Shown here one piece after another: positions 7,769 to 36,257 of a stretch of 51,394 bases of DNA. Location: positions 1 to 51,394 of the forward strand of contig JAISLM010000021.1 of NCBI GenBank assembly GCA_031290855.1. Direction: 5' to 3'. How positions within the stretch are numbered: position 1 is the stretch's first letter; every line of letters begins with the position of its first letter. The stretch is from Spirochaetaceae bacterium. Its GTDB lineage: Bacteria > Spirochaetota > Spirochaetia > Treponematales > Breznakiellaceae. Position numbers and translations under genes: made by a program. Below the pieces are notes generated by a model. The model did no database searches, was not told the origin of the DNA, and saw only the letters and a program-made list of their open reading frames with translations.

Positions 7769-7861
7769 CAATGAGGGATGAGGGGCCGCCGACACGGAAC
7801 TTGCCGGGCGGTCGGGGTCTGACCCTATCCCGGCCTAAATCTTTACCCGGTAATGATTTAG
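7769..7861. repeat. Direct repeat copy 1 (~93 nt) upstream of tex
   Basis: CAATGAGGGATG...GGCCGCCGACACGGAACTTGCCGGGCGG.CGGGGTCTGACCCTATCCCGGCCTAA.TC.TTACCCGGTAATGATTTAG recurs at 7878-7988. Confidence 0.85.
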
Positions 7862-7877
7862 CGCGACAAGACGCGTA

Positions 7878-7988
7878 CAATGAGGGATGTGTGTGTAAGG
7901 GGCGGGTACCGGCCGCCGACACGGAACTTGCCGGGCGGGCGGGGTCTGACCCTATCCCGGCCTAAGTCGTTACCCGGTAATGATTTAG
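7878..7988. repeat. Direct repeat copy 2 (~111 nt, carries a ~21-nt insertion)
   Basis: Near-identical to 7769-7861 apart from inserted TGTGTGTAAGGGGCGGGTACC and 3 substitutions. It contains the REP-like core GGGGTCTGACCC. Confidence 0.85.
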
Positions 7989-8114
7989 GAGAGGGAAACG
8001 AAGGATCGGAGTACGTATCTGAAAACTTAAGAGATACCTCCAGAAAGTTTTTTCCGTCAAGGATGGCCGGAAAGCGGGGAAAAACCCCCGGTTTTAACAA
8101 AATTAAACTTTAAT

Positions 8115-8150
8115 GAGGCTTTCCCAAAACTGAAGTTTTGGGAAAGCCTC
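8115..8150. repeat. Perfect 16-bp-stem palindrome (GAGGCTTTCCCAAAAC-TGAA-GTTTTGGGAAAGCCTC)
   Basis: Read directly. The inner module CCCAAAAC-TGAA-GTTTTGG recurs at ~8309, ~11113, ~21050 and ~31286. Confidence 0.9.
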
Positions 8151-8178
8151 TACTGTCATATTATAATTTTACCAGTGG

Positions 8179-8336
8179 AGACTGTTCCAAAACTAATTGA
8201 CTGTGCGCTAAAGCGCGCGGTTTTGGACCAGGCTCTTGCAGTTTTTCAGGCTAAAGCCTTGCAAAACCGCGTTTTTTAAAGGTTGCTGGACAAGCGAAGC
8301 TTGTCTCCCCAAAACTGAAGTTTTGGAACAGCCTCA
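8179..8336 (+). repeat. Family-D dispersed repeat, copy D1
   Basis: Aligns along its length with 20908-21081 (CCAAAACTAATTGACTGTGCGCTAA...AAGCTTGTCTCCCCAAAACTGAA.TTTTGG.A.AGCCTCA). Confidence 0.85.
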
Positions 8337-8565
8337 GTGAGTCAGGTTATTTTTTGACAGTTCCCTAGGTTCGCGCTTGCCGCGCGGAGGCTCATTGCTG
8401 CCGCCGGTGTCGTATTCGCTTGGAGTAATGCGTATGCGCCTAAATTGGTAATATTATACTGCCAACCTCTAACGTTACGCTGTAAATCTTGATGCTAAAA
8501 GAGCCTGCCCGATTTTGGTAACGCTTTCCGGAATAGTTGCGCCGGCAAGCGCCTACGGCGGGCCG

Positions 8566-8650
8566 CGCAAGGGATAGAAGCGGTATGAAAACGGCGCCGC
8601 CGTTTTCATAATAGCGGATAGCCCGGTCGCCGCACGGCGGCGATGCGCCC
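8566..8650 (-). repeat. Family-C repeat, copy C1 (short form)
   Basis: The reverse complement matches 26751-26788 and 26911-26930 (GGGCGCATCGCCGC.G.GCGGCGA.CGGGCTATCCGCT ... CCGCTTCTATCC). It abuts the rluA-family stop codon. Confidence 0.75.
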
Positions 8651-11103: not shown

Positions 11104-11262
11104 CCAGGGGCTTTCCCAAAGCTTCAGTTTTTGGGAGACAAGCTTGCCTGGGAGACAAGCTTGCTTGGGAGACAAGCTTGCTTGGGAGACAAGCTTGCTT
11201 GTCCGGCTACCTTAGATTTATATGAAAAAGCGGGCCGGACTAAAGTCCGTTTAGACCGCTTT
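11104..11262 (+). repeat. Family-E dispersed repeat, copy E1
   Basis: CTTTCCCAAAGCTTCAGTTTTTGG...CTTGTCCGGCTACCTTAGATTTATATGAAAAAGCGGGCCGGACTAAAGTCC aligns with 31281-31392. Confidence 0.85.
11133..11200 (+). repeat. Tandem repeat, 4 x 17 bp (GGGAGACAAGCTTGCYT)
   Basis: Four head-to-tail units read directly. The homologous locus at 31307-31342 has only 2 units of 18 bp. Confidence 0.9.
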
Positions 11263-13157: not shown

Positions 13158-13232
13158 AGTAATGTTTTCAAGCTACGCAAGTTTTAAAATCTTCGCAAAT
13201 AGCTGCAAGCAATAAAAATTCGCTTTAAGCTA

Positions 13233-13285
13233 AAATGAATCTTCCCGCCCCGAAGGGTGGGGGAGCAGATCCCGCTGCGAATCAA
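13233..13285 (+). repeat. Family-A repeat, short hairpin form (A2)
   Basis: AAATGAATCTTCCCGCC-CCGAAG-GGTGGGGGAGCAGATCCCGCTGCGAATCAA. It has the same 5' and 3' blocks as A4/A5, with the ~110-nt interior replaced by a 6-nt loop. Confidence 0.8.
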
Positions 13286-13346
13286 CGACTGCCACAGGGC
13301 GGGGCTTTACAGTTTTTCCCGCTTGCGTCATGCTTAACGGAGCCGA

Positions 13347-13401
13347 GCGGCGTGTATCGCGTAAGTCCAGGCAGACTTACGTGGTATACGCCGCTTTTTT
13401 T
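13347..13401 (+). terminator. Strong intrinsic terminator (21-bp stem plus T7)
   Basis: GCGGCGTGTATCGCGTAAGTC-CAGGCA-GACTTACGTGGTATACGCCGC followed by TTTTTTT. The three non-Watson-Crick positions are all G-U on the plus-strand RNA. Confidence 0.75.
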
Positions 13402-13639
13402 CCGTAAGGCCGTCGGGATGGCGGAAAACCATCAAGTTTTTACCGGACCGGGCTTTCCCCGCGTAAACGGGACGAGGTGCGCCGGCTCTGTAACCTGCGC
13501 GAAAGTACGGTAACGAAAGGCGGGCTTTGGGAGGACGACAGGGTATCTTTTTTCCCAAAAAGATGCGCTGGTATGAAAACTTTCGGACGCCGCGTCAGTG
13601 TTTGTTGGCATGACGCGATCATTATTGGGAGGATTAACC

Positions 13640-13861
13640 ATGGAGTATGAACTGATACGGGAAATAATCAACCCCTGTGCCGGCGACAGGAGGCCGGAAG
13701 TGCTGGTCAGCGATGTTGAAAACGGGGATTTGGACACTTATGTCCGAAACCTGTTTGCAGGTCAGGAAATATCGTTTACGAAGATAGAGAAGCCTTCAGG
13801 TTCCGTTGTATACGAACTGGCGACGGGCGAACTTAAACACCGTTTGACGTTTACGCCGTGA
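13640..13861 (+). CDS. Small hypothetical protein (73 aa)
   Basis: ATG preceded by GGGAGG at -7 to -12. MEYELIREI...TFTP has non-repetitive, balanced composition. No function is recognisable. Confidence 0.45.
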   Translation: MEYELIREIINPCAGDRRPEVLVSDVENGDLDTYVRNLFAGQEISFTKIEKPSGSVVYELATGELKHRLTFTP

Positions 13862-14090
13862 CTGTGTCAACGTGCGGCGCCGAGCCGCTTGTGGCGTATC
13901 CTCTTTTGACAGGCGATTTACGTTGCTCCAATGTACGGAACAGGATGTTCGACAGAATGACTCTAACGCCGGTACTGATATAGTGCAAAACCGCCTTAGG
14001 CGCTATCGATGTAACCTTTTCGTGGGGCTTACGGCGGCGGCCTGTGTCGCCGGGATACGAAGCCGGTTTCGATAGAATATGGCGCTGAAC

Positions 14091-14213
14091 GGAGTTTTGA
14101 TTCTGCCTTTGGCGCTGCCGCCCACGCCTTTTTCCGATGACGCCGGTTTTTTAAGGGCGGGTTTGGCGGCTCAGACTATAACGGTACTGCCGGCGAAAGA
14201 AGCGGCGGCATAA
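14091..14213 (+). pseudogene. Fragment of an M28-like peptidase paralog
   Basis: Encodes ...[32 protein letters not shown], matching residues [31 protein letters not shown] of the 21718-22653 gene. Weaker DNA similarity extends back to ~13900. Homology stops exactly where repeat B2 starts. Confidence 0.75.
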
Positions 14214-14316
14214 TCCGCCCGGAGAACCGCAGCAGGCCGCCATTTCCTCCCCAAACCGAACCGTTCCAGGGGGACACGTCTGCCCTGAAAGCCGAATTTT
14301 GGACCAGGTTTAGAGC
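14209..14316 (+). repeat. Family-B repeat, copy B2
   Basis: CATAATCCGCCCGGAGAA...CATTTCCTCCCCAAACCGAACC...CCAGGGGGACACGTCTGCCCTGAAAGCCGAATTTTGGACCAGGTTTAG aligns with 26618-26722. Confidence 0.85.
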
Positions 14317-14347
14317 AGAGCGGCGGGGTATTACACCCGCGCTTTAC

Positions 14348-14400
14348 AATAAACCTCCCCGCCGCAGAGCGGCGGGGGCGCAGACCCCCACTGCGAATAA
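14348..14400 (+). repeat. Family-A repeat, short hairpin form (A3)
   Basis: AATAAACCTCCCCGCCGC-AGA-GCGGCGGGGGCGCAGACCCCCACTGCGAATAA. Confidence 0.8.
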
Positions 14401-14559
14401 TCGCTAAATCTTCAATAATGCCGCAATGCTATTGCCTATAGTCGCTTGAAAATTATTGGGAATTGTATGAAAATACAGGATACCAAAGTTTACGGGAAGG
14501 TTTCCGGAGCGTGGCGCGCCGGAGACGCCAAAATTTTAATGTAATCAAGAGGTAAAACT

Positions 14560-15320
14560 ATGAAAGGATTCTTCAAAATTCTTGTTGCCTCGACGGTCGC
14601 GGCATCCCTGCTAACGGTCACGGCTTGTTCGAAAAAGGAAGCGGCGGCGAGCGGCGTTTACGAGCCGCTTACCGGGGCCAATACCGGCGGCGGCGCTATA
14701 GAGCTGGAAGGCGTTGAAGCGGGAGGCAAGACGTACAAGTTTGAGCTTGTAATCGCGGACAACAATTCCGACAAGGTTGAGGCGTCAACGCGGTCCAGCG
14801 CCTTGTCACCAGCGACAAGGTGTCTTTAATTTTCGGCTCCTGGGGTTCTTCGCTTTCGATAGCGGGCGGCGAGGTTGCGAAAGACGCCGGTATCCAGGTA
14901 ATCGGGCTTTCCTGCACGAATCCGCTTGTTGCCGCGGGGAATGACTGGTACTTCCGCGTATGCTTCATAGACCCGTTCCAGGGGACTGTGATGGCGAATT
15001 ACGCGCACAGCGAGCTTGGCGCGAAAAACGCCGTTATCGTGCGGGAAATCTCCAACGATTATTCCGTGGGCCTTGCCAAGTTCTTTACCGACAAATTTAT
15101 CGAATTAACGGGAAATCCAAACGCGATTCTTACGACCATAGACTACAATACCGGCGGCCAGGATTTTTCCGCCCAGCTTACGCAGGTTAAGTCTCTGAAT
15201 CCCGATGTGGCGTTCGCGCCCGGCAACTTTACGGAGCCCGCGCCCGTGATTAAGCAGGCGCGGGCTCTCGGCGTAAGCGTGCCGTTCATAGGCGGCGATA
15301 CACGGGAAGCGCCCTGTTGA
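14560..15320 (+). pseudogene. LivJ-type ABC substrate-binding lipoprotein gene, frameshifted and 3'-truncated
   Basis: Lipoprotein signal (LLTVTAC). ORFs 14560-14829 and 14820-15320 join into one PBP-type sequence (...DKVEA / VQRLVTSDKVSLIFGSWGSS...) only with a 1-nt shift near 14787. The reading frame ends ~130 codons short of the usual family length. Confidence 0.75.
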
Positions 15321-20308: not shown

Positions 20309-20907
20309 CCCGCTGGTCCCGTCCGCCGCTTTACATACGCGCCTTGATCCGCAAGAGTCCTTGAAATAAACGAATGAGCCTCCGCACGGTATCTTAAGCG
20401 TTGTGTTGGTTGGAGCGGAGGCTCGATCGGATGCGGAAGTTTATAATATCGTCTGGTTTAATACAAAATCTTTGTAGTCGTTGCCTTACTTGAGCCGCGG
20501 CAAGCGCGAACCTAAGGTTCGGCGGGGTATTAAACCAGACTTTGCGAATAAAATATAATGGAGTACGGGCAAACTGCACATAACTCGGCAGCTTTGCTGC
20601 CGCAGACTGTTTACGCTTTTTTGTCCTGCCGGACAAACCGGGCGGTAGACGGCTCGGCCTCCGCAACGGCCCCGGTCTCGCTACGCGCCCCAGCGCAGCA
20701 GGGGAACATTCCCGCGCCTCCCTCCTTTTATGGCAAAGCAGGCGGGTCAAACATCGGGTAAAACCGCTTGACGCGGTTTTGTGGCACAGTTTGTCGGCCC
20801 TGGAAATGCTACGCATTTTTCTATTCGGGCCGCCAAACCGTCATCGAACCGCAGGTTCGCAACAGCCGGAACGTTACGCGAAATTCCTGCTAAAATGATT
20901 AACAAGT

Positions 20908-21081
20908 GAGCCTGTCCCAAAACTAATTGACTGTGCGCTAACGCTCACGGTTTTTGCTCAGGCTTTTGCAGTTTTTGAGGCCTTCGGCCTTCAGATTTTC
21001 ATACTTGCAAAACTGCGAACTTCAAGGTTGCCGGGCAAACAAAGCTTGTCTCCCCAAAACTGAATTTTTGGGAAAGCCTCA
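20908..21081 (+). repeat. Family-D dispersed repeat, copy D2
   Basis: Aligns with 8179-8336. The internal hairpin loop differs (TAAA in D1, CTTCG plus an extra ~15 nt in D2). Confidence 0.85.
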
Positions 21082-21721: not shown

Positions 21722-22653
21722 CGCAGGTGTCCGTTCCAAGAGAGGGAACGGTCAATTCAGCCAAACCCTCCCCGCCGTACCATCGTTTTAACGACTTCGT
21801 TGATACCAAAAACGATAGGTTTGAGGTGCTTATATCCCTGCTTGACGAACTGAAACTGCATGTTTCCGTTGTTAACATTTCGGGGAAACGGCATATCTTT
21901 GTCGCGCCCTCGTCGTACACGTTCCAGCCGGCGGAAAAGAAACTGCTGACCGTGCTGGCCGCGCATTACGACAGGATACCGGAAAGTCCGGGTGCGAACG
22001 ATAACGGGGCGGCGGTCTTTATGCTGATAGACGCGGCGATCCGACTGCGCGGTCGCGCCGCCGGAGAATGGCTCATCATCTTTACCGACAAGGAAGAACT
22101 GATGCGCGGCGAAGGGATCCGGTCCCAGGGTTCGTACCTGCTTGCGCAGGGTTTGAGCAAGGCGGGTCTTGAAGCCGGCAGATTTTTTATTTTTGACGCC
22201 TGCGGGCGGGGCGATACACTGATAATTTCCAAAACGGCAGGCCATCTGTTAAAGAATTACCATAGCGGGGAGGTCGCGCCGCTCAAAAACCGCCTCCGCC
22301 TGTTGCAGCTTAGGGCAATGGACGCGGCAAAAAACAGCCTTGACGGGCGCTTTCTGTTGCTGCCGACGCCTTTTTCTGACGACGCCGGTTTTTTGCTGGC
22401 CGGCATGGCGGCGCAGACGATAACGGTGCTGCCCGCAAAAGAAGCGGCGGACTTTTCCGCCGTCGTCCGCAGAAACGATTTGTACGTCAATGCCCTTATC
22501 TGCGGCGAGCAGCAGCGGCGGCGCGGCATGGACCATATCCCGCAGACGTGGCGGCTGTTGAACGGCCCTGAAGATACGGCCGCAATGCTTGACGGCAATA
22601 ATTTTGAGAACGTAGTACAGTTTGCCCTTGAACTGTGCCGCATGGATACTTAA
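21718..22653 (+). CDS. M28-family (Zn exopeptidase-like) protein
   Basis: [26 protein letters not shown] and FTDKEEL resemble M28 metal-ligand blocks. The usual SDH motif reads SDD. The GTG start overlaps the infA stop (GTGA). Confidence 0.6.
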
Positions 22654-22800
22654 GAAGCCGACTATAAGCCGGCCCGCCTCCCGCCCCCCTTTGCGAATGA
22701 AGTTGTTTAAGGCGTATTTAGACCGTACCGTAAAAGATGCCTGATACCAATAGATGGAAGGGAACCGGCTTACGCTCATAAAAAGTTAACTGTTCACTTA

Positions 22801-22966
22801 AAATGAACCTCCCCGCCACAAAACAGCGTCAAGCTTCCGCGTGTGTATTGTGCCACCGGCACAATACACAACGGCAAACCGCGATGCGGTTTGTGCCTGA
22901 CGTTTTATTTCCTGCCTAACCTTATAAGGAGGGACAAGGCGGGGGAGCAGACCCCACTGCGAATAA
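22801..22966 (+). repeat. Family-A repeat, long structured form (A4, 166 nt)
   Basis: Aligns end to end with 25692-25859. The closing stem is CCCCGCC/GGCGGGG. Internal hairpins are GTGTATTGTGCC-ACCG-GGCACAATACAC and GGCAAACCGC-GAT-GCGGTTTG(T)GCC. The 3' block is GGGGGAGCAGACCCCACTGCGAATAA. Confidence 0.9.
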
Positions 22967-23151
22967 ACGCGTCATATTGATACATATATCACTTTGAAAC
23001 AGTACGTTGTGTCAATCTTACACTATTGCTGATTAAACAGAAAATATAACGGATGGTTCCGCCGAGAATAAAACAGGGGTCAAGTCATGTAAATCTATGT
23101 GCAATAACAATTTAACATGAAATATATCCAACTGCCCGATATTTGTATGGT

Positions 23152-23167
23152 TGGCACGCTTGTTGCT
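23152..23167 (+). promoter_or_regulatory. Sigma-54 (RpoN) -24/-12 promoter element
   Basis: TGGCACGCTTGTTGCT matches TGGCACG-N4-TTGCW at every specified position. It lies ~29 nt upstream of the sigma-factor ATG. It overlaps a sigma-70-like TTGTAT(23143)-18 nt-TATAAT(23167). Confidence 0.7.
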
Positions 23168-23194
23168 ATAATATTAGCATTATAGGAGGTTTCC

Positions 23195-24070
23195 ATGAAT
23201 AGGAAACGAAATACAGTGAATAATAAACGTTCCGCGACGCCGGATGAAAATGTGTTGACTCTTTATTTAAAAGATATTAGCCGGATCCCCTTGCTAACCA
23301 GGGAAGAAGAAGATACCGTAGCACGTAAAGCTGCCGCGGGTGATCAAGCCGCGTTGAATACACTGGTCAGAGCGAATCTACGCTTTGTCGTCAATGTCGC
23401 AAAGCGGTACCAGGGGCAGGGTCTGCCTCTCACCGACCTGATAAGCGAAGGCAACATAGGCTTGATTAGCGCCGTAAGTCGTTTTGATGTTGATAAAGGT
23501 TATCATTTCATTTCATATGCGGTTTGGTGGATACGTCAGGCTATTCTGAAGGCCATATCCGAAAAATCGCGGATGATACGCTTGCCGATGAATCGTGCCG
23601 ATGAATTACTGCGCATACAGCGTACCAAAAACGAACTACAGAATGTTGAATCCTGCGAATCTGAAATAAACGAGATCGCCCGTACCCTTGATATGAGCGC
23701 CTCCCACGTCAACAGACTGCTGAACGTAAGCCGTGAAATGGTATCTCTCGATACACCGGTTTATTCCGAAAAAGATTCCTGTATCATAGCGGATCATATC
23801 GAGGATGACACCTACCAGTCGCCATACGAATTTGCCGAGCAAAGCCTTATGCGTGATGATATTGAAGCGGTTTTGGGAACACTGGACAAGAAAGAAGCCG
23901 CCGTAATCCGATGCCGCTTTGGAATCGGCGATTCGATTCAGATGTCCCTGCGGGAAATCGGCGACCGCTTCAATCTGACAAAGGAACGGATCAGGCAGAT
24001 CGAAAAAAAGGCGATCAAACGCCTGCAACATCCGGCTCGCCAGCAGATACTACAGGTTTATGTAGCGTAG
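23195..24070 (+). CDS. Sigma-70 family sigma factor, group-2 / RpoS-like
   Basis: AGGAGG RBS. Region 1.2 YLKDISRIPLLTREEE. Region 2 NLRFVVNVAKRYQGQGLPLTDLISEGNIGLISAVSRFD...YAVWWIRQAI. Region 4 LTKERIRQIEKKAIKRL. Confidence 0.9.
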   Translation: MNRKRNTVNNKRSATPDENVLTLYLKDISRIPLLTREEEDTVARKAAAGDQAALNTLVRANLRFVVNVAKRYQGQGLPLTDLISEGNIGLISAVSRFDVDKGYHFISYAVWWIRQAILKAISEKSRMIRLPMNRADELLRIQRTKNELQNVESCESEINEIARTLDMSASHVNRLLNVSREMVSLDTPVYSEKDSCIIADHIEDDTYQSPYEFAEQSLMRDDIEAVLGTLDKKEAAVIRCRFGIGDSIQMSLREIGDRFNLTKERIRQIEKKAIKRLQHPARQQILQVYVA

Positions 24071-24330
24071 CCAGGATAGACGCAGCTCGTCCAAATTGCA
24101 GCCGCAGCCGGTAGAAAATCCCCGCCGCGGCCATTTTTTTTCAAACAGGTGATACGGCAGTCCGTCCAAAACGAAATGCGCGAATGGCCGGGTATAACAA
24201 ATGTTAGACAGATGAAATTGCGATCCGTGGCGTAAACGGACGCGGATTTTTACGGGTTATTCGCCGGACTTTGCGTATCTCTGTCCGGGCCTTGCTTCAT
24301 AAAACATCCGCAAGGATTGTTTTTTAAGTT

Positions 24331-24403
24331 TGCCGCCAAAGAGAATCGAACTCTTGCCACAAGGATTTTCAGTCCTTTGCTCTACCAACTGAGCTACAGC
24401 GGC
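24331..24403 (-). tRNA. tRNA-Phe (anticodon GAA)
   Basis: Manual cloverleaf: GCCGCTG-TA-GCTCAGTTGGTAGAGC-A-AAGGA-CTGAAAA-TCCTT-GTGGC-AAGAG-TTCGATT-CTCTT-TGGCGGC-A. Confidence 0.9.
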
Positions 24404-24427
24404 CTGTCAAAACTTTATGATGTACCC

Positions 24428-24457
24428 ATCATAACAAACATTCAAAAAAGATGTCAA
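24428..24457 (-). promoter_or_regulatory. Candidate sigma-70 promoter for tRNA-Phe (TTGACA-18 nt-TATGAT)
   Basis: Minus-strand hexamers are at 24457-24452 and 24433-24428. The -10 element ends ~25 nt upstream of the mature tRNA 5' end. Confidence 0.5.
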
Positions 24458-24611
24458 CGGGCGGCTGCCCCGCCGTAAATTTGGGCCTTCCCGGGCCTGA
24501 ACCAGGGAGCTACGGGTTATAAGGCCATGCATCCTTTAGTATACATTATCCTGTTTGATATAAAATAAACTATAATAATGGAGGAATGTCAATAGAACGC
24601 ATTGGCTAATA

Positions 24612-24655
24612 ATTATTCCAGCCGAAATCAGGCTGCGGGGGTCTGATCCCCTCCT
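24612..24655 (-). repeat. Family-A-like 3' block in reverse orientation (A6, partial)
   Basis: The reverse complement GGAGGGGATCAGACCCCCGCAGCC...GGAATAA resembles GGGGGAGCAGACCCCACTGCGAATAA. It supplies the last codons and the stop of the transposase relic. Confidence 0.4.
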
Positions 24656-25160
24656 CACTGACAGGGAGGATTTCCAGTGCAGCCCTTTTCACGAATGAGC
24701 TTCAACAGGTTCTCTATCGCCCCGTTCAGCTTCCGGTTCAATTCAACCGGGTTATACAAGGCCCGCCTCCGCCTCAGTTCCGCCTTGCACTCCTCTGAAG
24801 TATCAGGCGACTTCGCCAGCCGGCGGAAGGGCGTCCGCGCTCCCTTCCCGTAAACTTTTTTGTACCACCCGCCCGCCTGTTTTTCTTTCGACACCGGCTT
24901 GAAGGACTGATACCGGTAATTGTACAGCGGACACAGGTAGCGGTACAGCTCCGCCAGACGGCGTACTCGGCGGACGTGTCGAACCGGAAGCAGCCGTCCG
25001 TTTTCCGCACGACATCGAAGTTCTTTTGCCCGGCGTAACAGTTATCATTTTTGTGACAGGGCCCGGTTCGCGTCGGCCCGGTATGCCGTCCAGGACACCA
25101 CCTGGGCAGGGGCTCGTTGATGAATTCCATGCCCTTACCGTAATGAGCGCCCTTAAGGGG
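24655..25160 (-). pseudogene. Relic of an rve/ISNCY-like DDE transposase (C-terminal part, frameshifted)
   Basis: Two frames give GMEFINEPL...HKNDNCYAGQKNFDVVRKTDGCFRFDT and then ...WYKKVYGKGARTPFRRLAKSPDTSEECKAELRRRRALYNPVELNRKL. I recognise these blocks from integrase-core transposases (family assignment from memory). The upstream 25161-25690 is too degenerate to read. Confidence 0.55.
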
Positions 25161-25691
25161 GGAAGGGAAGCTCCTCCTTTATGTCCAAAAAAGCGTCAAA
25201 ACCCGGCGCTTGGCCGCGTTTTTTGGCAGCGCCCGCTCTTCTGCCCGCCCCGAAAATACATCGCTCCCCGTCAAGGTTTCGCGGAATTGGCCGCCCGCCG
25301 GCCCTCTGCGGCGCGCCGCCGGATCAAAAGCGAGGAAACCGTCCTTCATCACGCCCCGGTCAAACCCGGTTCACACCGGGATTTGGCTCCGCAGGGGCGT
25401 GTACGCCGCCCGTATCGTGCCCACTACACGGATTTCCGGCTTCTTCCGCGCACCGGCAAACGGCGGATCCGCCCCGCCGGACTCGCTTCCCCAGGCAGTT
25501 TCTCCATCGCGGACCTTATGCCGTACCCGCCGTCCGCATCCGGAAACCCTGTCATCCCCCGTATCATCGGCACCGGCGGATTACAACCCGGCTCCTCCGC
25601 TGGATGTGTTTTGCAACTTCATTATACCGGACCTGGCGATGTCTTTCCTGCGTCCCGCTATTTTCGCTTTTCAGATTTGATTTGGCCGGGT

Positions 25692-25859
25692 AAATGAACC
25701 TCCCCGCCACAAAACAGCGTCAAGCGTACGCGTGTGGATTGTGCCGCCGGCGCAACCCACAACGGCAAACCGCTATGCGGTTTGTGCCTGACGTTTTACC
25801 TCCTGCCTAACCTGATAAGGAGGGACACAAGGCGGTGGAGCAGACTCCGCTGCGAATGA
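25692..25859 (+). repeat. Family-A repeat, long structured form (A5, 168 nt)
   Basis: By eye it differs from A4 by ~15 substitutions and one 2-nt indel. Confidence 0.9.
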
Positions 25860-25949
25860 GCCTCCACGCGGCAAGCCCTAAACTTGACCCGCAAAATATT
25901 TCCTGACGAAAAGCTCCCCGCCGAGCCGCCGGAACGGTGTTTCCGGTCC

Positions 25950-26013
25950 GGCTTCTTTCCGTTTTTTCTCCGTATATTAAAGCAAACCGCGGGTTAATCG
26001 CCAATATATTTAC
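25950..26013 (+). repeat. Family-F module (IS-end-like), copy F2
   Basis: GGCTTCTTTCCGTTTTTTCTCCGTATATTAAAGCAAACCGC...TATATTTAC aligns with 31218-31280. Its first ~31 nt are the inverse of 1306-1336. Confidence 0.75.
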
Positions 26014-26613
26014 ATGAGACATTTAAGAATGCTGAAACAGGGCGTGTGGTACGAAATCAGTACCCGCGTCAACAACCGGGAACCCCTGTTTCGCGGGGGC
26101 CGGGCCCCGGCTCTGTTCGACCGGGTGTTCCGTGAGACCGCGAACAGGTTTGTCTTCGCGGTCCGGGGCTTAAGTCTTGCCGGCGACCGGCTGGCCTTTT
26201 ACATCAGGCCCGCGGACGGGTTCGAGCTGCCCGCGATAATGAAATGGCTGAAGCAGACCTTCGCCATTAGGTACAACAGGGACAATGGACGGACGGGACA
26301 CCTGTGGGGCGACCGGTACTGGTCGCGGATCCTGGAAGGGGAGCCGCCGGACGGCGTGGAGGCGGCGGGGGACTCCCCGGCCCTCTGCGGGGTCAGACCC
26401 GTAATCGGGCAACGCCTCGCAGGACGCATGGCGGCGGGAGTCCCGCCGGACGGCGGCAGGGTCAGACCCCACAGCGGGGAACGCCTCGCCGGACGCATGG
26501 CGGCGGGGGACTCCCCGGCCCTCTGCGGGGTCAGACCCCGCAGAGGGGAACGGACTGCCGGGGCCGCGTTTTCCCGTCTATACCCACTTACCATCGCCCC
26601 GGCGCCCGGATAA
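26014..26613 (+). CDS. IS200/RAYT-like Y1-transposase homolog, probably inactive
   Basis: GVWYEISTRVNNREPLF and GHLWGDRYWSRIL match conserved blocks of REP-associated tyrosine transposases. The HUH position reads LAFYIRP. The C-terminal third is a 69-bp tandem repeat instead of the catalytic-Tyr region. There is no RBS. Confidence 0.55.
   Translation: MRHLRMLKQGVWYEISTRVNNREPLFRGGRAPALFDRVFRETANRFVFAVRGLSLAGDRLAFYIRPADGFELPAIMKWLKQTFAIRYNRDNGRTGHLWGDRYWSRILEGEPPDGVEAAGDSPALCGVRPVIGQRLAGRMAAGVPPDGGRVRPHSGERLAGRMAAGDSPALCGVRPRRGERTAGAAFSRLYPLTIAPAPG
26361..26560 (+). repeat. Tandem ~69-bp repeat (~3 units) built from palindromes
   Basis: GGTCAGACCCC...GGAACGCCTCGC.GGACGCATGGCGGCGGG recurs at 26391 and 26460. 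GCGGCGGGGGACTCCCCGGCCCTCTGCGGGGTCAGACCC recurs at 26362 and 26500. It includes the perfect palindrome CTCTGCGGGGTC-A-GACCCCGCAGAG (26521-26545). Confidence 0.85.
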
Positions 26614-26617
26614 ACGG

Positions 26618-26722
26618 CATAATCCGCCCGTAGAATCTTAGCGGCCTCCATTTCCTCACCACACCGAACCCGCCCAGGGGGATACGTCTGCCCTGAAATC
26701 TGAATTGTGGGTCAAGTTTAGC
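26618..26722 (+). repeat. Family-B repeat, copy B3
   Basis: Starts 5 nt after the RAYT-like stop with CATAATCCGCCCG. It aligns with 14209-14316. Confidence 0.85.
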
Positions 26723-26750
26723 TTTGTATAGGGTGGGGGTGTTCCATTTT

Positions 26751-26930
26751 GGGCGCATCGCCGCTGCGCGGCGAGCGGGCTATCCGCTCCAATTCCGCAC
26801 AAACCGCGAAGCGGTTAAACCTCCCGCCCATGAAACGATTAAATCCCTTCCCTGTATCCCAGGTGGAGTTTTGCAAAGCAAAACTCCGAAAATAACCGCG
26901 CAACGGTTATTCCGCTTCTATCCATTGCGA
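26751..26930 (+). repeat. Family-C repeat, copy C2 (long form)
   Basis: The flanking blocks match the reverse complement of 8566-8650. The interior carries extra hairpins (GGAGTTTTGC-AA-GCAAAACTCC and AATAACCG-CGCAA-CGGTTATT). Confidence 0.75.
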
Positions 26931-27055
26931 GTCCTGGCCGACACAGGCATCAACGCAGCGGCACAGGGGTAAGCGGAACAACAAACGCTAGAAACCAATC
27001 CCCAAGAACCGGGCGTACCTGATGTCCCAGGAAAAGACGCAGAGTCCGCCCTCTA

Positions 27056-29914
27056 TTAGTGGAAGTCTCCCCAGCGTTTGCCGATTTCTACGCTTACCCG
27101 TAGCGGGACGGAGAGTTTGGCCGCATTTTCCATCACGCCGCGAACCAGGCGGGCCGTCGCCTCGCCTTCCTCTTCCGGGCCTTCCAGGATAAGTTCGTCA
27201 TGAACCTGAAGCAGCATACGCCAGCGCTTGTCTTCGGGATGGTCCTCGTTCACTTCCGTAAGAGCCTTGTCCAGGTCTATCATAGCGCGTTTCACGATGT
27301 CGGCGGCCGTTCCCTGAATCGGCGTATTGACGGCGATGCGCTGTGCGGCGGCCTTTTCGGTCTTGTTGGACGAATTGATCGTCGGTATGGCCCGGCGGCG
27401 GCCAAAAAGCGTCGAGACGTAGCCGTTTTTTTCCGCACCTTCAATAATATTGCTTAACAGGGCGCGGACCCCGCTGTAAGTTTTGAAGTAGGCGTCGATG
27501 AAAGAAACGGCTTCGGTACGGCTTATACCAAGCTCATCGCCAAGACGGAACGCGCTCATGCCGTACATCACGCCGAAGTTGATCACCTTGGCGATACGGC
27601 GCTGGGCCGCGTCAACCGCGCTTTCGTCAATGCCGAAGATACGCGCCGCCGTTTCCGCGTGTATGTCCTTGCCCGCGTTAAAGGCTGCGCTGAGCGCCTC
27701 GTCTTTGGAAAGGTGGGCCAGTACAACCAGCTCTATCTGGCTATAGTCGGCGGATACCAGAGTCATTCCCGGCGATGCGACAAAGGCCTCGCGGATACGC
27801 CTGCCTTCTTCGTCCCGGACCGGTATATTCTGTAGATTGGGGTCACGGCTGGAAAGGCGTCCGGTCGCGGTGCCGTTTTGGATAAAGCTGGTGTGGACAC
27901 GGCCCTTACTGTCGGCAATGGCCGGCAGAACGTCAACATAGGTGGACTTCAGCTTGCTGAGCGCCCGGTGCCGCAGGATAAGACCCGGAACGGGGTCGCT
28001 GCGGGCAAGCTCGGCGAGGACGGCCACGTCGGTGGAGTATCCGGTCTTTGTTTTTTTGCCCGGTTTGAGTCCGCGCTCCGTAAAAAGTATGTCCTGCAGC
28101 TGCTTTGGGGAAGACAGGTTGAACTTATGACCGACAATTTTCCATGTTTCAGCCTGGGTCCGTTCAATATCGACGCCAAGCTCCGCTCCGTAGGCGCGCA
28201 GGGCGGAGCTTTCTATCATTATCCCGGTGCCTTCCATCTTGGCCAGGATGGGCACGAGCGGCATTTCGAGCGTGTCGAACAGGGAACGCGAGCCGGTTTC
28301 GTTCATCTTTTCGTCCAGGACGGCCTTTATCCGCAGACAGAGGTCGGCGGCCTCCGCCGAATACCGGCAGGCGGTTTCAAGCGGCGTTTCGTGGAACAGG
28401 CCTCCCTTGGGGACTATCGAAAAGTAGCTTACCGCGTCGTAGCCCAGGTGATCGCGGGCAAGGGCCGAAAGAGCGTAGCTGGAACGTTCCGGCACACAGA
28501 GCCAGGCCGCAATCATCGTGTCATAGATCGAACAGCTCCAGCGGGGAAGCCCCCATACGCAGGAAACTTCGCAGTTGAACTTTACGTTATGCGCTATCAC
28601 ATTGACGGAACTGTCAGCCAGCAGAGGCGCGATCAGGGCGCGGACAGCCTTTTCCGGCAGACAGCGCTCGTCACGTGTCGAAGATGCCGGCCCGTGCGGG
28701 CACAGCGGGACATAGACCGCTTCGCGCACCTTCACGGCCAGGGACAGACCGACCAGTTTGTCGCGCCAGGCTTCGGGGGTGTCGGTCGCGAAATTCAGCG
28801 CGAAGTAACCCTGTCTGCGCGCCTCCTCAAGGAGGGCCTCCAATTCCTTTAGATCGAGAATAACCCTGTAAGAGCCAACCGGTTCACATGGCAAAACGTC
28901 ATCTTTTTCGGCGTTATCCATGCCGCTTTCACCGGCGGCGGCGTTACCGTAGCGCGGTTTTGCGCCGCCGTTGGCGTCTTCCAGCCCGTCCAAAGGCCCG
29001 TTCAGAAGTTCCTTGGCAAGAGACGGGATACTTTCCCGTACAAGAAAGGCCGCCCCCGCCCTGCGGTCAAGGTTTTCGATGCTGAGGCCGGACATGCCGC
29101 TTACCGGAAGCGGCACGTCTCCGCGCAGCGTGATCAGATCCCTGGAAAGGTAGGCGTTGTCCTTGCCCTCCGCCAGTTTTTTTGCCAGGCCGCTGTCGAT
29201 AGAGCCTATATTTTGATAGATTTGGTCCAGGGAGCCGTAGCGTGTCAGCAGCTTGACGGCGGTCTTATCGCCGATCCCTTTAACGCCCGGCACATTGTCC
29301 GAACTGTCGCCGGTCAGCGACAGCAAATCAAGGATTTTTTCGGGGGGAATCCCCCACTCCGCGCATACCTCGTCCCGTCCCATAGTCTGGTAGGGCAGCT
29401 TTGTAAGTTTGTTGTACTGCGAGACGGTTCCCGCCGACGTTTTTGAGGGGCGAAGCTGGATTATGCCGTCACCGACAAGCTGCAACAGGTCTTTATCGGA
29501 AGAAACGATGTAGCAGGGATACTTTTCGGCGCGGCACCTTTCGGCCAGTGTGGCTATCACGTCGTCCGCCTCGAAACCGTCAACCTTGAGGACGGGTATC
29601 TTCAGCGCATGAAGAAATTCCTCGACGAGCGGCACCTGGGCGTGCAGGTCTTCCGGCGCTTTCTGCCTCTGCGCCTTATACTGGGGGTACTGCTTGTGGC
29701 GGAAAGTGGGGGTACGCGAATCGAAAACGGCTGCAAGGAAGCGTACCCCGCTCCCGTTCCCGTCCAGAAGCGTGATCAAGGTACGGGCAAAGCCGAACAG
29801 GGCGGACATATTCTTGCCGTCCTTGTTCCGCAGCGGGCGCGAGATGAACGCGAAGTACGAGCGGTAAATCAGAGCGTAAGAGTCAACAAGGTAGAGGGCG
29901 TCAGGTTTGTTCAT
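27056..29914 (-). CDS. polA: DNA polymerase I
   Basis: 952 aa with an N-terminal 5'-3' exonuclease region, motif B RRIAKVINFGVMYGMSAF and motif C LLQVHDELILE. Confidence 0.96.
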   Translation of the reverse strand: MNKPDALYLVDSYALIYRSYFAFISRPLRNKDGKNMSALFGFARTLITLLDGNGSGVRFLAAVFDSRTPTFRHKQYPQYKAQRQKAPEDLHAQVPLVEEFLHALKIPVLKVDGFEADDVIATLAERCRAEKYPCYIVSSDKDLLQLVGDGIIQLRPSKTSAGTVSQYNKLTKLPYQTMGRDEVCAEWGIPPEKILDLLSLTGDSSDNVPGVKGIGDKTAVKLLTRYGSLDQIYQNIGSIDSGLAKKLAEGKDNAYLSRDLITLRGDVPLPVSGMSGLSIENLDRRAGAAFLVRESIPSLAKELLNGPLDGLEDANGGAKPRYGNAAAGESGMDNAEKDDVLPCEPVGSYRVILDLKELEALLEEARRQGYFALNFATDTPEAWRDKLVGLSLAVKVREAVYVPLCPHGPASSTRDERCLPEKAVRALIAPLLADSSVNVIAHNVKFNCEVSCVWGLPRWSCSIYDTMIAAWLCVPERSSYALSALARDHLGYDAVSYFSIVPKGGLFHETPLETACRYSAEAADLCLRIKAVLDEKMNETGSRSLFDTLEMPLVPILAKMEGTGIMIESSALRAYGAELGVDIERTQAETWKIVGHKFNLSSPKQLQDILFTERGLKPGKKTKTGYSTDVAVLAELARSDPVPGLILRHRALSKLKSTYVDVLPAIADSKGRVHTSFIQNGTATGRLSSRDPNLQNIPVRDEEGRRIREAFVASPGMTLVSADYSQIELVVLAHLSKDEALSAAFNAGKDIHAETAARIFGIDESAVDAAQRRIAKVINFGVMYGMSAFRLGDELGISRTEAVSFIDAYFKTYSGVRALLSNIIEGAEKNGYVSTLFGRRRAIPTINSSNKTEKAAAQRIAVNTPIQGTAADIVKRAMIDLDKALTEVNEDHPEDKRWRMLLQVHDELILEGPEEEGEATARLVRGVMENAAKLSVPLRVSVEIGKRWGDFH

Positions 29915-31120: not shown

Positions 31121-31217
31121 CGCTCATAATAGCTGATAAATCCGTTTGTTGGTAAGTGGGGCGGCGTATGAATGAAGCTCCACGCCGCGCTTCGGGCCGG
31201 AAGGGCCTTTCCGCTTA

Positions 31218-31280
31218 GGCTCCTTTCCCTTTTTTCTCCGTCCGTTAAAGCAAATCGCAGGCAGGCGCCCGTATATTTAC
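31218..31280 (+). repeat. Family-F module, copy F3
   Basis: GGCTCCTTTCCCTTTTTTCTCCGTCCGTTAAAGCAAATCGC...GTATATTTAC aligns with 25950-26013. Confidence 0.75.
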
Positions 31281-31392
31281 GGGACTTTCCCAAAACTTCA
31301 GTTTTTGGCGGACAAGCTTCGCTTGGGAGACAAGCTTCGCTTGTCCGGCTGCCTTGGATTTATATGAAAAAACGGGACGGACTTTAGTCCAT
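31281..31392 (+). repeat. Family-E dispersed repeat, copy E2 (2 x 18-bp tandem at 31307-31342)
   Basis: Aligns with 11104-11262. Confidence 0.85.
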
Positions 31393-34913: not shown

Positions 34914-35984
34914 CTAGTTTTCCAGGATCAGTTCGCCGGAACGCAGACGGGATAACATCTCATGTTGTTTCTTTCGGACGGAATCGCTTACGGCGGCGGC
35001 GTACAGCGGGTCATCCTCGATAAAATCGACATAAGCGTCCCGTATGCCCACAACTTCCGCCTCTCCGAAAGACAGTTTCCCTTCCAAAAAGAGCTTCGTC
35101 CTGCTGTAGGCCGCCCTGTCCTGAAGCAGGACGCAACTGCCGACGATGTAGGGAGGCCGCACCGCATAGCCGTTTGTGTCGAACCAGACGATCCGGGCCC
35201 TGTCCGTCCCGGCCTCCACCGCCGCCTGCACCGCGCCTTCGTTTGCGCCGCCCGCGACGCACAGAAGCACGCGGGCGCCCGCCTTGATCATGCCGGCGGC
35301 AAGCTCGGCGCATTTGGCCGCGTCGTACCAGTTACCGACAACCCTGAAGTCAACCGCTATGCCGGGATCCACGGCAAGCGCGCCTTCGCGGTAGCCGGGC
35401 AGTATAGTTTGCAGCATGGCCGGGTACTCCTGGGCGGCGATAAGCCCCACCCTGCCGCCGCCCGCCTCGGCGGCGACCAGCGCGGCGAGATAGCCGGCCA
35501 TGTAGGCCTGCTCCCGCTGGTTGTACCTGAGCGTGTATATGCCGGGATCGCCTGAAAGCTCGCCGTCAAGCAGCAGGAAGCGCTGCGCCGGAAATTTGGC
35601 CCGCACGGCCCGCGCAAGTTCCGGCAGGGACGGGTTGGACGACACGATCAGATCGTAAGCGCCGCTTGCCGCAAGCGCGGTAAGTTTCGCTTCCCATTCG
35701 GCCTGGTTGTAGCCGCCTTCGATCACCTGCACCGTTACAGGCTGACCATCGTCCGCAGCGTTGCGCTCGTCGGCGGCCCACTTCACGCCCTCGGCAAGCA
35801 TCTCGTAGATAGGACTACCCGAAGCCGCGCCCGGTATGAACACGGCAATCGATACGGACTTTGTCCCCGTTTGCGCGGCAGGCCGGGCCGTTGAAGGCTG
35901 CCTGGGTTTGCAGGCGGCAAACACTAAAGTCGCGGCGATCAGCATGACCGCCATTCTTTTTTTCCTGTTAATATTTTCTTTCAT
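34914..35984 (-). CDS. BMP-family ABC substrate-binding lipoprotein (RfuA-like, riboflavin inferred)
   Basis: Lipobox LVFAAC and a BMP/PnrA/TmpC-like sequence. An FMN riboswitch lies immediately upstream. Confidence 0.85.
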   Translation of the reverse strand: MKENINRKKRMAVMLIAATLVFAACKPRQPSTARPAAQTGTKSVSIAVFIPGAASGSPIYEMLAEGVKWAADERNAADDGQPVTVQVIEGGYNQAEWEAKLTALAASGAYDLIVSSNPSLPELARAVRAKFPAQRFLLLDGELSGDPGIYTLRYNQREQAYMAGYLAALVAAEAGGGRVGLIAAQEYPAMLQTILPGYREGALAVDPGIAVDFRVVGNWYDAAKCAELAAGMIKAGARVLLCVAGGANEGAVQAAVEAGTDRARIVWFDTNGYAVRPPYIVGSCVLLQDRAAYSRTKLFLEGKLSFGEAEVVGIRDAYVDFIEDDPLYAAAVSDSVRKKQHEMLSRLRSGELILEN

Positions 35985-35986
35985 GT

Positions 35987-36136
35987 CTCTTTTCTCCCAT
36001 CCGGACTGTACCGTCGGCGCCGGAATTTCACCGGTTCAGTCCAAAAACCCTTTTGAGGCCCCTGGAGTCGCGGGCTTTAACCGCCGGTCGGGATTCACGA
36101 AGCCTGACGGCTTTGCGCTAACCCTACCCCGAAAAT
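35987..36136 (-). promoter_or_regulatory. FMN riboswitch (RFN element)
   Basis: The minus strand reads UUUUCGGGGUAGGGU...GUGAAUCCCGACCGGCGGUUAAAGCCCGCGAC...GGACUGAACCGGUGAAAUUCCGGCGCCGACGGUACAGUCCGGAUGGGAGAAAAG. This matches the conserved RFN blocks. The 3' P1 strand contains the GGGAG Shine-Dalgarno, 9 nt before the ATG. Confidence 0.85.
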
Positions 36137-36257
36137 TAATTTGTATTATCACCCGGAAACCGAAATTCCCGAATGAATCCAGCATAATTTATCCGTGCCG
36201 GGATGACAAGCGGTTCCGCCGGCGCCGTAGAAAAAGAGGCAGGCCCGCCATTTAAAT

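Follow-up and report, generated by a model that had tools for sequence, protein, structure and literature searches.

A 51,394-bp stretch of spirochaete DNA (Spirochaetaceae bacterium, contig JAISLM010000021.1; 55.7% G+C), referred to here as the window, contains a discrete cassette of 844 bp. The single open reading frame (ORF) of the cassette encodes a homolog of the Y1 transposases and runs on through a tandem array of a short palindromic motif, GGGGTCAGACCCC, copies of which are also found outside genes. An earlier note on this DNA had likened the locus to a REPtron, in which a REP-associated tyrosine transposase (RAYT) gene lies among repetitive extragenic palindromes (REPs). Our analysis places the cassette in a multicopy gene family from which the catalytic motifs of these enzymes are missing. 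Its features are as follows.

25878 to 26721, plus strand: complete cassette of 844 bp (left terminal inverted repeat (TIR), 5' terminator-like hairpin, ORF, conserved 3' region, right TIR), delimited by similarity among paralogs
25878 to 25892, plus strand: left TIR, CTAAACTTGACCCGC, present at the left end of every paralog with an intact 5' end
25929 to 25971, plus strand: terminator-like hairpin CCGGAACGGTGTTTCCGG followed by a T-run, upstream of the ORF and conserved in all close paralogs
26014 to 26613, plus strand: ORF of 199 aa (MRHLRMLKQGVWYEI to APAPG and stop), with an N-terminal Y1-fold domain and a repeat tail
26014 to 26349, plus strand: N-terminal domain with a predicted Y1/HUH fold (Pfam, AlphaFold2, Foldseek and alignment), without HUH and catalytic-tyrosine helix
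26361 to 26429, 26430 to 26498 and 26499 to 26567, plus strand: three in-frame 69-bp (23-codon) units encoding a basic tail (AAGxxPAxxGVRPxxGxRLAGRx) predicted to be disordered (pLDDT <50)
26390 to 26401, plus strand: motif copy 1, GGGTCAGACCCG
26459 to 26470, plus strand: motif copy 2, GGGTCAGACCCC
26519 to 26547, plus strand: perfect palindrome of 14+1+14 nt in the last array unit, centred on motif copy 3 (26528-26539)
26660 to 26674, plus strand: internal TIR-like 15-mer, CACACCGAACCCGCC, forming a subterminal stem with the right TIR
26673 to 26695, plus strand: element in the 3' untranslated region, CCCAGGGGGATACGTCTGCCCTG, an interrupted inverted copy of the motif about 140 nt past the last tail motif and predicted to pair with it
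26707 to 26721, plus strand: right TIR, GTGGGTCAAGTTTAG (reverse complement CTAAACTTGACCCAC), conserved in paralogs

The limits of the cassette were drawn by comparison with paralogs on seven contigs (L080 to L086) of one JGI metagenome sample (3300042652). Five close paralogs are 81-89% identical in DNA, and their similarity starts and stops at the cassette ends, between unrelated flanks, beginning about 135-150 bp upstream of the start codon at CTAAACYTGACCCGC and ending 108 bp past the stop codon at GCGGGTCARGTTTAG. The paralog cassettes each measure 770-845 bp and are bounded by inverted repeats of about 15 bp. Half-sites of the motif (TGACCC / GGGTCA) are located in the cassette TIRs, the outermost TIR retaining the half-site TGACCC only. 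Copies occur singly between differing housekeeping genes, for example flagellar operons, an rRNA methylase and glutamate synthase. The 3' region is conserved even in members with 55% identity, and the 5' hairpin may act as a shield against read-in transcription.

The first ATG of the ORF was taken as the start because the sequence MRxLRxLKQG is conserved in distant members and in catalytically intact relatives; the JGI and NCBI gene calls begin five codons further on, at MLKQ. At 26014 and in the paralogs the sequence CCATATATTTACATGAGACATTTAAGAATGCTGAAACAGGGCGTGTGG, which has no Shine-Dalgarno element, does not vary between close paralogs, and 7-12 nt upstream of the ATG there is a TATATT box, which suggests that a leaderless mRNA may begin at 26014. 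The match of the N-terminal domain to Pfam Y1_Tnp (PF01797) has 26 bits against a cut-off of 23 and covers no more than positions 5-110 of the 121 in the profile. Among NCBIfam models REP_Tyr_transpos (NF047646) fits best, with 25.6 bits against a cut-off of 80 and positions 8-116 of 146, compared with 76.6 bits and positions 2-146 for an intact relative. An AlphaFold2 model built with 46 family members predicts a beta-alpha-beta-beta-alpha-beta core from residue 1 to about 107 (pLDDT about 84-92) and a disordered tail. With Foldseek this core matches the TnpA proteins of ISDra2, IS608 and IS200 (2XM3, 2VJV, 2F4F; E about 4e-6 for IS608 and ISDra2) and the E. coli RAYT-REP complex 4ER8 (E 1.2e-4). 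Because sequence searches of the PDB, with the single protein and with a family profile, gave no match, the relation to known structures is seen by fold comparison alone. The description of the ORF as RAYT-like in the earlier note agrees with these profile and fold matches: its product is a homolog of the REP-associated and IS200-type Y1 transposases, and by NCBIfam scores it is closer to RAYT than to IS200.

The residues on which catalysis depends are absent from this homolog. In HUH enzymes two histidines bind the metal and a tyrosine serves as nucleophile. Where intact relatives have N-N-H-x-H-x-I-I, the alignment gives G-D-(R/W/L)-L-(A/T/S)-F-Y-I for the spirochaete family (G-D-R-L-A-F-Y-I in the window protein), so that NH[VFY]H of the relatives has become D[RWL]L[ATS]. 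The spirochaete domain ends at ...WGDRYWSRILEGEPP, and the Y-x-x-x-N-P helix is gone. H-x-H was absent from all 48 alignable proteins among the top 150 cluster representatives at 50% identity, and no Y..NP motif was found in the family members examined. With both HUH and tyrosine absent, the protein would be unable to cleave DNA by known HUH chemistry.

A protein search returned 857 homologs, of which the best 120 or so all lack HUH and are labelled Spirochaetaceae bacterium or Treponema sp. Every one of 16 members that were looked up falls within one NCBI accession block and one locus-tag series (LBO04), with 62-82% amino-acid identity to the window protein; the shared block and series identify them as paralogs of one metagenome-assembled genome (MAG). 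About 40 additional NCBI-named matches bear the same organism label. A scan of genome contigs gave seven family loci in other Treponema MAGs, and a scan of metagenome contigs gave distant relatives alone, at 22-42% identity. No relatives of the ORF were found in viral contigs, and PADLOC reported no defence-system match. For the N-terminal domain the ratio of nonsynonymous to synonymous substitution (dN/dS) ranges from 0.09 to 0.26, and for the tail from 0.18 to 0.9; comparisons between paralogs of the one MAG are included, and since it is low even in these the copies are not pseudogenes. The gene is thus multicopy and under purifying selection, and is not a single-copy RAYT.

The tail of the protein is encoded by the tandem array. 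Tandem Repeats Finder placed the array at 26361-26552 (period 69, 2.8 copies, 78% matches), where the earlier note had seen three copies of about 69 bp within the ORF, and it is indeed translated as the C-terminal part of 26014-26613. The palindrome described there as perfect over 12 bp is perfect, yet longer than reported, at 14+1+14 nt. Folded as a single strand, the array region has a z-score of -3.7. Protein lengths in the family fall at 147-150, 168-174 and 192-195 aa, in steps of about 23 aa that correspond to one, two and three tail units; more distant members carry a single unit, and the 69-bp array is therefore a derived state, reached by expansion in frame. Members with 50% identity still have GVRP and the C-terminal ...PLPxAPAPG, and the family also includes G-V-S-P and G-A-R-P subfamilies.

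Within the tail, the motif is conserved as DNA. The residues V-R-P are written GTC AGA CCC in all nine tail units of six diverged loci, at synonymous divergence (dS) above 1.3; in the same six loci a single codon is kept in none of eight other invariant Arg columns and in none of eight invariant Pro columns. Among the 16 tail units of ten loci, 15 preserve GGTCAGACCC at each of the three codon positions, with synonymous sites saturated, and this is the best-conserved stretch of the tail, the flanks varying even at first and second codon positions. The palindrome is under nucleotide-level constraint in the coding tail.

The probable source of the motif is seen in catalytically intact relatives. 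Distant relatives from metagenomes (30-42% identity) keep both HUH (NHVHFII, NHFHLII, NHYHII) and the tyrosine helix (YLNQNPV, YIYRNPxRA). The closest of them, L012, L013 and L014, carry inverted repeats around the gene, GGTCTGTCCCC upstream and GGGGACAGACCC downstream, with two copies per side in L012; in L013 and L014 GGTCTGTCCCCTTAG stands at -128 and CTAAGGGGACAGACCC downstream at +290 / +313. Another intact relative, L010, is flanked by GAGTGTCCC and GGGACACTC. A protein search with L012 gave six matches. Judged by sequence, the motif is homologous to these flanking repeats: GGGGTCAG, located here in the coding tail, fits the consensus GGGGWSAS and has its homolog in GGGGACAG of the intact relatives' TIRs, and one base change from GGGGACAGACCC to GGGGTCAGACCC yields the perfect palindrome. 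At two loci (L004 and L005) the motif is also found upstream of the ATG, direct at -75 and inverted at -25.

The scheme closest to this layout is the TIRtron of Di Nocera et al. 2013 (PMC3733652), in which RAYT-like genes named TIRYTs are bounded by TIRs. According to that report, GGGGWSAS is common to many TIRYT TIRs, which in some cases overlap the ends of the gene and in some make up families of dispersed repeats, as dimers or clusters, while HUH and catalytic Tyr are conserved in all TIRYTs (PMC3733652). The spirochaete cassette is alike in having a RAYT-like Y1 gene between TIRs, a motif that fits GGGGWSAS (GGGGTCAG) and repeats that overlap the 3' end of the gene and are also dispersed, and its nearest intact relatives, L012 to L014, have exactly the TIRtron layout, with GGGGACAGACCC. 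It differs in three respects: the published TIRYTs keep HUH and catalytic Tyr, both of which the spirochaete family is without; the family has dozens of copies per genome; and the GGGGWSAS-type motif is placed within the coding tail and 5' region instead of the outermost TIR, and has become a perfect palindrome. The arrangement fits the TIRtron/TIRYT scheme (PMC3733652) better than the REPtron, and departs from both in catalytic motifs and copy number.

The reading we put first, with confidence about evenly divided, is that the cassette is a nuclease-dead, proliferated TIRtron derivative that reads through an ancestral terminal motif, the motif GGGGTCAGACCCC being most likely its putative binding site. 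The cassette at 25878-26721 would then descend from a TIRYT gene lying between inverted repeats with a GGGGWSAS-type motif. The spirochaete lineage would have lost the HUH metal-binding motif and everything past the last core beta-strand, the catalytic-tyrosine helix included. In the simplest history, deletion of the tyrosine helix, the C-terminal region and the spacer would have let the frame enter the downstream terminal motif, and because the frame would thus run through that former terminal motif, GGGGTCAGACCCC would be both coding (G-V-R-P) and a DNA element. A beta-sheet core that binds hairpins or single-stranded DNA, fused to a basic disordered tail, may give a nuclease-dead, sequence-specific binder of the motif, with non-specific affinity added by the tail. 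Y1 enzymes bind through the face of the beta-sheet, for which the catalytic residues are not needed (IS608 TnpA, E. coli RAYT; PMC3333891, PMC3479197). The protein might bind at its own gene, at the half-sites of the cassette TIRs (GGGTCA / TGACCC) and at repeats outside genes that bear the motif, and it would act as a regulator or competitor and not as a transposase. In-frame duplications of 69 bp would multiply the DNA site and the basic peptide repeat together, and the cassette would have spread as a unit to many loci. Since all copies share the loss of catalysis, amplification would postdate that loss and so would need an enzyme acting in trans, which could be an intact Y1 reading the motif or a different transposase reading the TIRs.

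A conserved stem is predicted at the 3' end of the element. RNAalifold pairs CCCAGGGGGATACGTCTGCCCTG with the tail motif in all 11 loci, with 14 pairs and 96-98% of cells paired against about 50% in slid controls, values scored on the same alignment from which the structure was derived, and the helix has a few compensatory changes.

The motif is strongly over-represented in the window. Exact matches to GGRKCAGAYCCC number eight on the two strands against 0.03 expected, and none of 100 shuffles reached eight, so that the enrichment claimed at 11 sites is real; the coordinates given for these sites were right within a few bases. With one to two mismatches allowed all 11 are recovered, at 1430, 7814, 7941, 13262, 14377, 22944, 24638, 25838, 26390, 26459 and 26528, three of them one base off the pattern first proposed (14377 GGCGCAGACCCC, 25838 GGAGCAGACTCC, 26390 GGGTCAGACCCG). 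The exact 8-mer CAGACCCC is present at eight of these sites, as had been stated, and has nine matches in the window against 1.55 expected, the ninth (5342) being unrelated.

The 11 sites had been taken for one dispersed REP-like core, a view that we could not uphold, as they belong to at least three unrelated repeat families: five are D2 hairpin boxes (all on the plus strand), two lie in units of about 127 bp, one (24638) follows a different hairpin and three are in the ORF. Two motif classes can be separated. The true palindrome GGGTC-A-GACCC is found in ORF tails and in extragenic units of about 114-127 bp, and the non-palindromic box GGAGCAGACCCC is found 3' of a GC-rich hairpin. The core had also been described as usually forming a hairpin apex, which is correct for the palindromic class (7814, 7941 and the three ORF copies) and incorrect for the five sites at 1430, 13262, 14377, 22944 and 25838, where GGAGC-A-GACCCC has no symmetry (arm length 1) and sits 3' of a separate hairpin, CCTCCCCGCC...GGCGGGGGAG. 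Homology of the D2 core GGAGCAGACCCC to the palindrome is uncertain. Neither repeat class, the perfect palindrome around GGGTC-A-GACCC or the hairpin with its 3' box, carries a GTAG or CGTC tag.

Most palindromic copies have arms of 5-6 nt and a 1-nt centre, and in five of 25 the arms reach 10-14 nt and are built from differing flanks. This hints that symmetry around the core is favoured by selection or by some mechanism, the palindromes having seemingly been extended or symmetrised repeatedly. The long perfect arms (10-14 nt) were noted at 26519-26547, L080:2873-2895, L080:3083-3103 and L085:5970-5990, where the flanks read CTCTGC..., GCAGC..., GGCC... and CTGC....

In a working REPtron the ORF product would be a RAYT that cleaves the palindromes and spreads them as REP or REPIN elements, and the homology to RAYT and IS200 enzymes, the enriched and extragenic motif and the dispersed repeats flanking the gene are all in keeping with that. 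However, HUH and the catalytic-tyrosine helix are absent from every family member examined, the family is multicopy where RAYTs are typically single-copy (PMC5581495; PMC3333891), the repeats are without GTAG or CGTC tag and the 11 sites come from several unrelated repeat families, and we regard this explanation as very improbable. The resemblance to a REPtron holds for the enrichment, the extragenic motif, the association with the gene and the inverted repeats of intact relatives, and fails for catalysis, for single copy number and for the single repeat family.

Sites were further counted in a wider sample of 145 kb, made up of the window and the seven contigs of the one metagenome sample. 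Motif sites number 33 against 1.4 expected, 16 of them in cassette ORF tails, a count biased upward because the seven extra contigs were chosen for carrying the cassette. The extragenic count is unbiased: 15 sites lie in non-ORF DNA, which makes up 22% of the sequence, and apart from this gene family the motif is extragenic. The other two are nominally within ORFs, one in the last codons of a MatE gene and one in a spurious ORF over a decayed cassette fragment, neither convincingly genic. No motif site was found in a bona fide unrelated gene of the 145 kb, nor any in the gene-dense 27-51 kb half of the window.

Palindromic copies outside genes fall into three groups: tandem units of about 114-127 bp, a decayed gene fragment and tail-like 69-bp units outside a cassette. 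The first group shares no similarity with the tails beyond the motif and is represented in the window by the following feature.

7784 to 7988, minus strand: two tandem units of about 127 bp, each with exact GGGTCAGACCCC, of the same family as four units at L080:3050-3470

The decayed fragment of a cassette gene (…AIMKWLKQTFA…, with an internal deletion) lies at L080:2760-2940 and adjoins the upstream side of a four-unit array of motif repeats of about 114 bp; its motif reads GGGGTCTGACCCC, with the central base flipped, inside an 11+1+11 palindrome. At L084:786-925 two 69-bp tail-like units (GGGGTCAGACCCCTTGGCGGGAAACGCC...) stand directly outside the right TIR of a cassette and are non-coding, and so the tail unit exists also as an extragenic repeat.

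Could the motif be a host genomic signal unrelated to the gene, such as a DNA-uptake sequence, a transcription terminator, an mRNA-stabilising hairpin or the site of a host regulator? Over-representation with a strong intergenic bias, palindromic symmetry with some 10-14-nt arms from differing flanks and the stable single-stranded fold of the array region (z-score -3.7) would suit such a signal, yet the motif is confined to repeat modules and cassette tails, and does not stand alone in any ordinary gene or anywhere in the gene-dense half of the window. Because bona fide unrelated genes of the 145 kb hold no site, the motif does not behave as a DNA-uptake sequence; a T-run is missing after most copies, and the usual 5-6-nt arms and 1-nt centre are too weak for a terminator. 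The homology to the TIRs of intact relatives points to a transposase-type site, and a host signal appears quite improbable.

Conservation at the protein level alone would make G-V-R-P a selected, AT-hook-like basic repeat and the extragenic copies decayed cassette tails. A tail dN/dS below 1, the retention of GVRP and ...PLPxAPAPG at 50% identity and the motif within the decayed fragment at L080:2760-2940 and the tail-like units at L084:786-925 are consistent with this, but three consecutive codons of 4- to 6-fold degeneracy are invariant in 15 of 16 units at saturated synonymous sites. Moreover, the motif is non-coding upstream of the ATG in L004 and L005, a near-identical motif flanks intact relatives as non-coding inverted repeats, and the units of about 114-127 bp have no other likeness to tails. 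We give this explanation little credence.

The means by which the cassette moved are a separate matter. Its clear TIRs and discrete ends are those of a non-autonomous element resembling a miniature inverted-repeat transposable element (MITE), moved by an unrelated transposase (e.g. DDE) through TIRs of about 15 bp (CTAAACYTGACCC ends), in which case the internal motif would have no role in mobility and would be kept for the purposes of the protein. The termini CTA...TAG are compatible with a TA target duplication, the window holds a DDE_Tnp_1 insertion sequence (IS), and a dead Y1 protein would be incapable of self-mobilisation. Nevertheless, no transposase whose TIRs match came to light, as the IS that occupies 1-1304 ends in GCGGAGTTAGGG and not in the cassette TIR; a TA duplication is inseparable from the CTA...TAG termini, and empty sites were not seen. 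With 81-89% identity the copies are old, an ORF under selection (dN/dS 0.1-0.25) is not typical of a MITE, and the motif half-sites in the TIRs (GGGTCA / TGACCC) tie TIRs to motif. On balance we consider such a MITE-like origin unlikely.

The IS in question occupies window positions 1-1304 on the plus strand (ORF 30-1301), ends in ...GCGGAGTTAGGG and adjoins a TTAA in a cassette 5' region (GTATGTTAA|AGCAAA). The same IS end adjoins the same TTAA of another cassette, at L084:1-110, and both contigs break within the IS, which suggests that the IS targets the TTAA site in the presumed cassette promoter region. As a mobiliser of the cassette it was ruled out: it does not share the cassette TIR and was inserted into the cassette at TTAA. 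The region 8367-8650 was considered as an empty-site paralog of the cassette locus and ruled out by its wrong module order. A diversity-generating retroelement, an integron cassette and CRISPR were dropped, there being no reverse transcriptase, attC-like site or spacer-repeat structure.

Several points weigh against the reading of the cassette as a nuclease-dead TIRtron derivative that binds its motif. The putative link between protein and motif is drawn solely from ancestry and co-location, and G-V-R-P could equally be a selected peptide, the tail dN/dS being below 1. With respect to the gene, the outer TIRs of the cassette face the opposite way from the TIRs of the relatives and so are not their positional homologs. 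Within the window, the local 29-nt palindrome beats the long-range pairing with the 3' element in the predicted minimum-energy fold, and the hairpin-box motif GGAGCAGACCCC may owe its likeness to the palindrome to coincidence, a match of 10/12 between short repeats not being improbable. Neither an empty site nor a clear target duplication was found for cassette copies, and there is no sign of recent transposition, as the DNA of the paralogs is 11-19% divergent. The spirochaete DNA sampled, about 195 kb and a small fraction of a genome, yielded no intact Y1 gene that could supply the enzyme for mobilisation in trans.

The nuclease-dead TIRtron derivative can be set beside other known systems. 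The REPtron, a RAYT (TnpA_REP) gene with its REP, BIME or REPIN repeats, was reportedly described by Nunvar in 2010 and by Bertels and Rainey in 2011. It is also treated by Ton-Hoang 2012 (PMC3333891). Shared with it are a Y1-fold protein and a gene embedded in short, extragenically abundant repeats that are clustered and form tandem arrays. Differences are that a RAYT is single-copy and catalytically intact and its REPtron does not move as a unit, whereas the gene here is dead, multicopy and part of a discrete cassette, and that REPs are imperfect palindromes of 20-40 nt tagged with GTAG or CGTC, tags that are lacking here. Elements of the IS200 type (IS200/IS605) resemble the cassette in size (about 0.7-0.85 kb), in a single small Y1-fold ORF, a 5' terminator-like hairpin, structured 3' subterminal DNA and many copies. 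However, IS200 has HUH and Tyr, no TIRs and near-identical copies, while the cassette has no catalytic motif, TIRs of about 15 bp and copies 81-89% identical yet under purifying selection. Truncated transposases that act as DNA-binding inhibitors, e.g. Tn5 Inh and the P-element KP repressor, are products of an active element. They offer a further parallel, being transposase derivatives without catalysis that keep end-recognition and could occupy the sites of their element; here, in contrast, the dead form is the only form seen and has itself been amplified and selected.

The earlier note knew of no such description for spirochaetes. REP-type (CGTC) repeats had in fact been reported in Spirochaetes (PMC3733652), so that novelty claimed for the whole phylum goes too far. 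A limited literature search gave no paper on HUH-less, Tyr-less, amplified RAYT-like cassettes nor on this spirochaete family. A large phylogenomic survey of Y1 proteins kept only sequences with both motifs (PMC6006769).

If the protein does bind the motif, it would be a natural separation-of-function variant, with recognition but without cleavage, usable to study how Y1 enzymes read DNA, and a case of a transposase-derived DNA-binding family expanding within a genome. RAYTs and TIRYTs are the textbook domesticated bacterial transposases, single-copy and catalytically intact, and are thought to drive the spread of REP-type repeats. The spirochaete lineage appears to have taken another route, with catalytic residues lost, dozens of discrete copies under selection and an ancestral terminal motif constrained at nucleotide level within coding sequence. 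The annotation 'REP element-mobilizing transposase RayT' is misleading for this whole clade of spirochaete proteins. In a bolder and rather doubtful extension, the HUH-less, Tyr-less Y1 proteins would be a new functional class that binds hairpins or palindromes, each gene bearing the site for its product within the coding tail and the family having grown to dozens of selected copies in a genome. Proteins and extragenic arrays would then make up a self-recognising network that structures or regulates the genome; alternatively, the cassette would be a selfish one, able only to bind, and would hitch-hike on an enzyme acting in trans. On this view the 3' stem of tail motif and inverted copy could serve as a ligand in the form of single-stranded DNA or RNA.

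Other repeats of the window comprise partial copies of the cassette, the D2 boxes and a further hairpin.

1305 to 1418, minus strand: cassette left-end fragment (TIR CTAAACTTTACCCAT and 5' hairpin module), 78% identical to 25875-25980, inverted, cut at TTAA by the DDE-transposase IS
14206 to 14313, plus strand: solo cassette right-end fragment (3' conserved region and diverged TIR), 83% identical to 26615-26721
31175 to 31280: copy of the cassette 5' module, found by DNA similarity
1415 to 1453, plus strand: D2 box with GGAGCAGACCCC, adjoining the inverted cassette left-end fragment and overlapping the last codons of the MatE ORF
13237 to 13285, plus strand: short-form D2 hairpin box with GGAGCAGATCCC
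14344 to 14400, plus strand: short-form D2 hairpin box (AACCTCCCCGCC-GCAGA-GCGGCGGGGG and CGCAGACCCCCACTGCGAATAA)
22801 to 22967, plus strand: long-form D2 module with GGAGCAGACCCC, no cassette adjoining
25692 to 25860, plus strand: long-form D2 module, multi-hairpin, closed by CCTCCCCGCC/GGCGGTGGAG and followed by GCAGACTCCGCTGCGAATGA; adjoins the cassette, 90% identical to 22801-22964, fold z-score -3.9
24630 to 24670, minus strand: hairpin CCTCC...GGAGG, then GGATCAGACCCCCGCAG; intergenic, beside a tRNA gene

The D2 hairpin box consists of the opening arm CCTCCCCGCC and then CAGACCCCACTGCGAATAAAC, with a core that is not palindromic. It is a separate and abundant family, whose short form measures about 50 nt and whose long form about 165 nt. 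The D2 arm GAACCTCCCCGCC stands, inverted, 6-10 nt beyond the cassette TIRs: L080 has it on either side, L083 has it on the left and the window has a diverged version; the cassette therefore often lies within a D2-type hairpin, a REPtron-like aspect of the locus. The neighbourhood of the cassette at 25690-27050 is a mosaic of dispersed repeats. Rfam searches of the whole window at the gathering threshold and of 22600-27100 at a permissive one assigned neither the array nor the hairpin box nor the cassette to an RNA family.

Long-form D2 was also observed in L080 at about 15050-15250 and 20340-20510, both on the minus strand; the module has three internal hairpins and is closed by CCTCCCCGCC/GGCGGGGGAG. 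No Rfam family matched this form, its copies can be chained via a shared AATRAAC, and it could be a small RNA or a MITE. A dispersed intergenic repeat family free of the motif (CCCAAAACTGAAGTTTTGGG... AAGCTTGTCTCCC) occurs in the window at 8114-8336, 11106-11248, 20899-21081 and 31281-31390 and includes a 17-bp x 4.2 tandem array, TTGGGAGACAAGCTTGC, at 11131-11201. The intergenic DNA of the genome is, as such, a mosaic of several short repeat families. Downstream of a repeat-rich, ORF-poor stretch of 1.6 kb (13158-14819), a 166-aa ORF at 14820-15320 on the plus strand aligns with Peripla_BP_6 in the middle part of the profile alone (positions 72-224 of 343) and is perhaps a gene that inserted repeats have cut short. 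The window further contains five tRNA genes and, at 35985-36140 on the minus strand, an FMN riboswitch (Rfam RF00050, 88 bits) upstream of the minus-strand gene 34914-35984.

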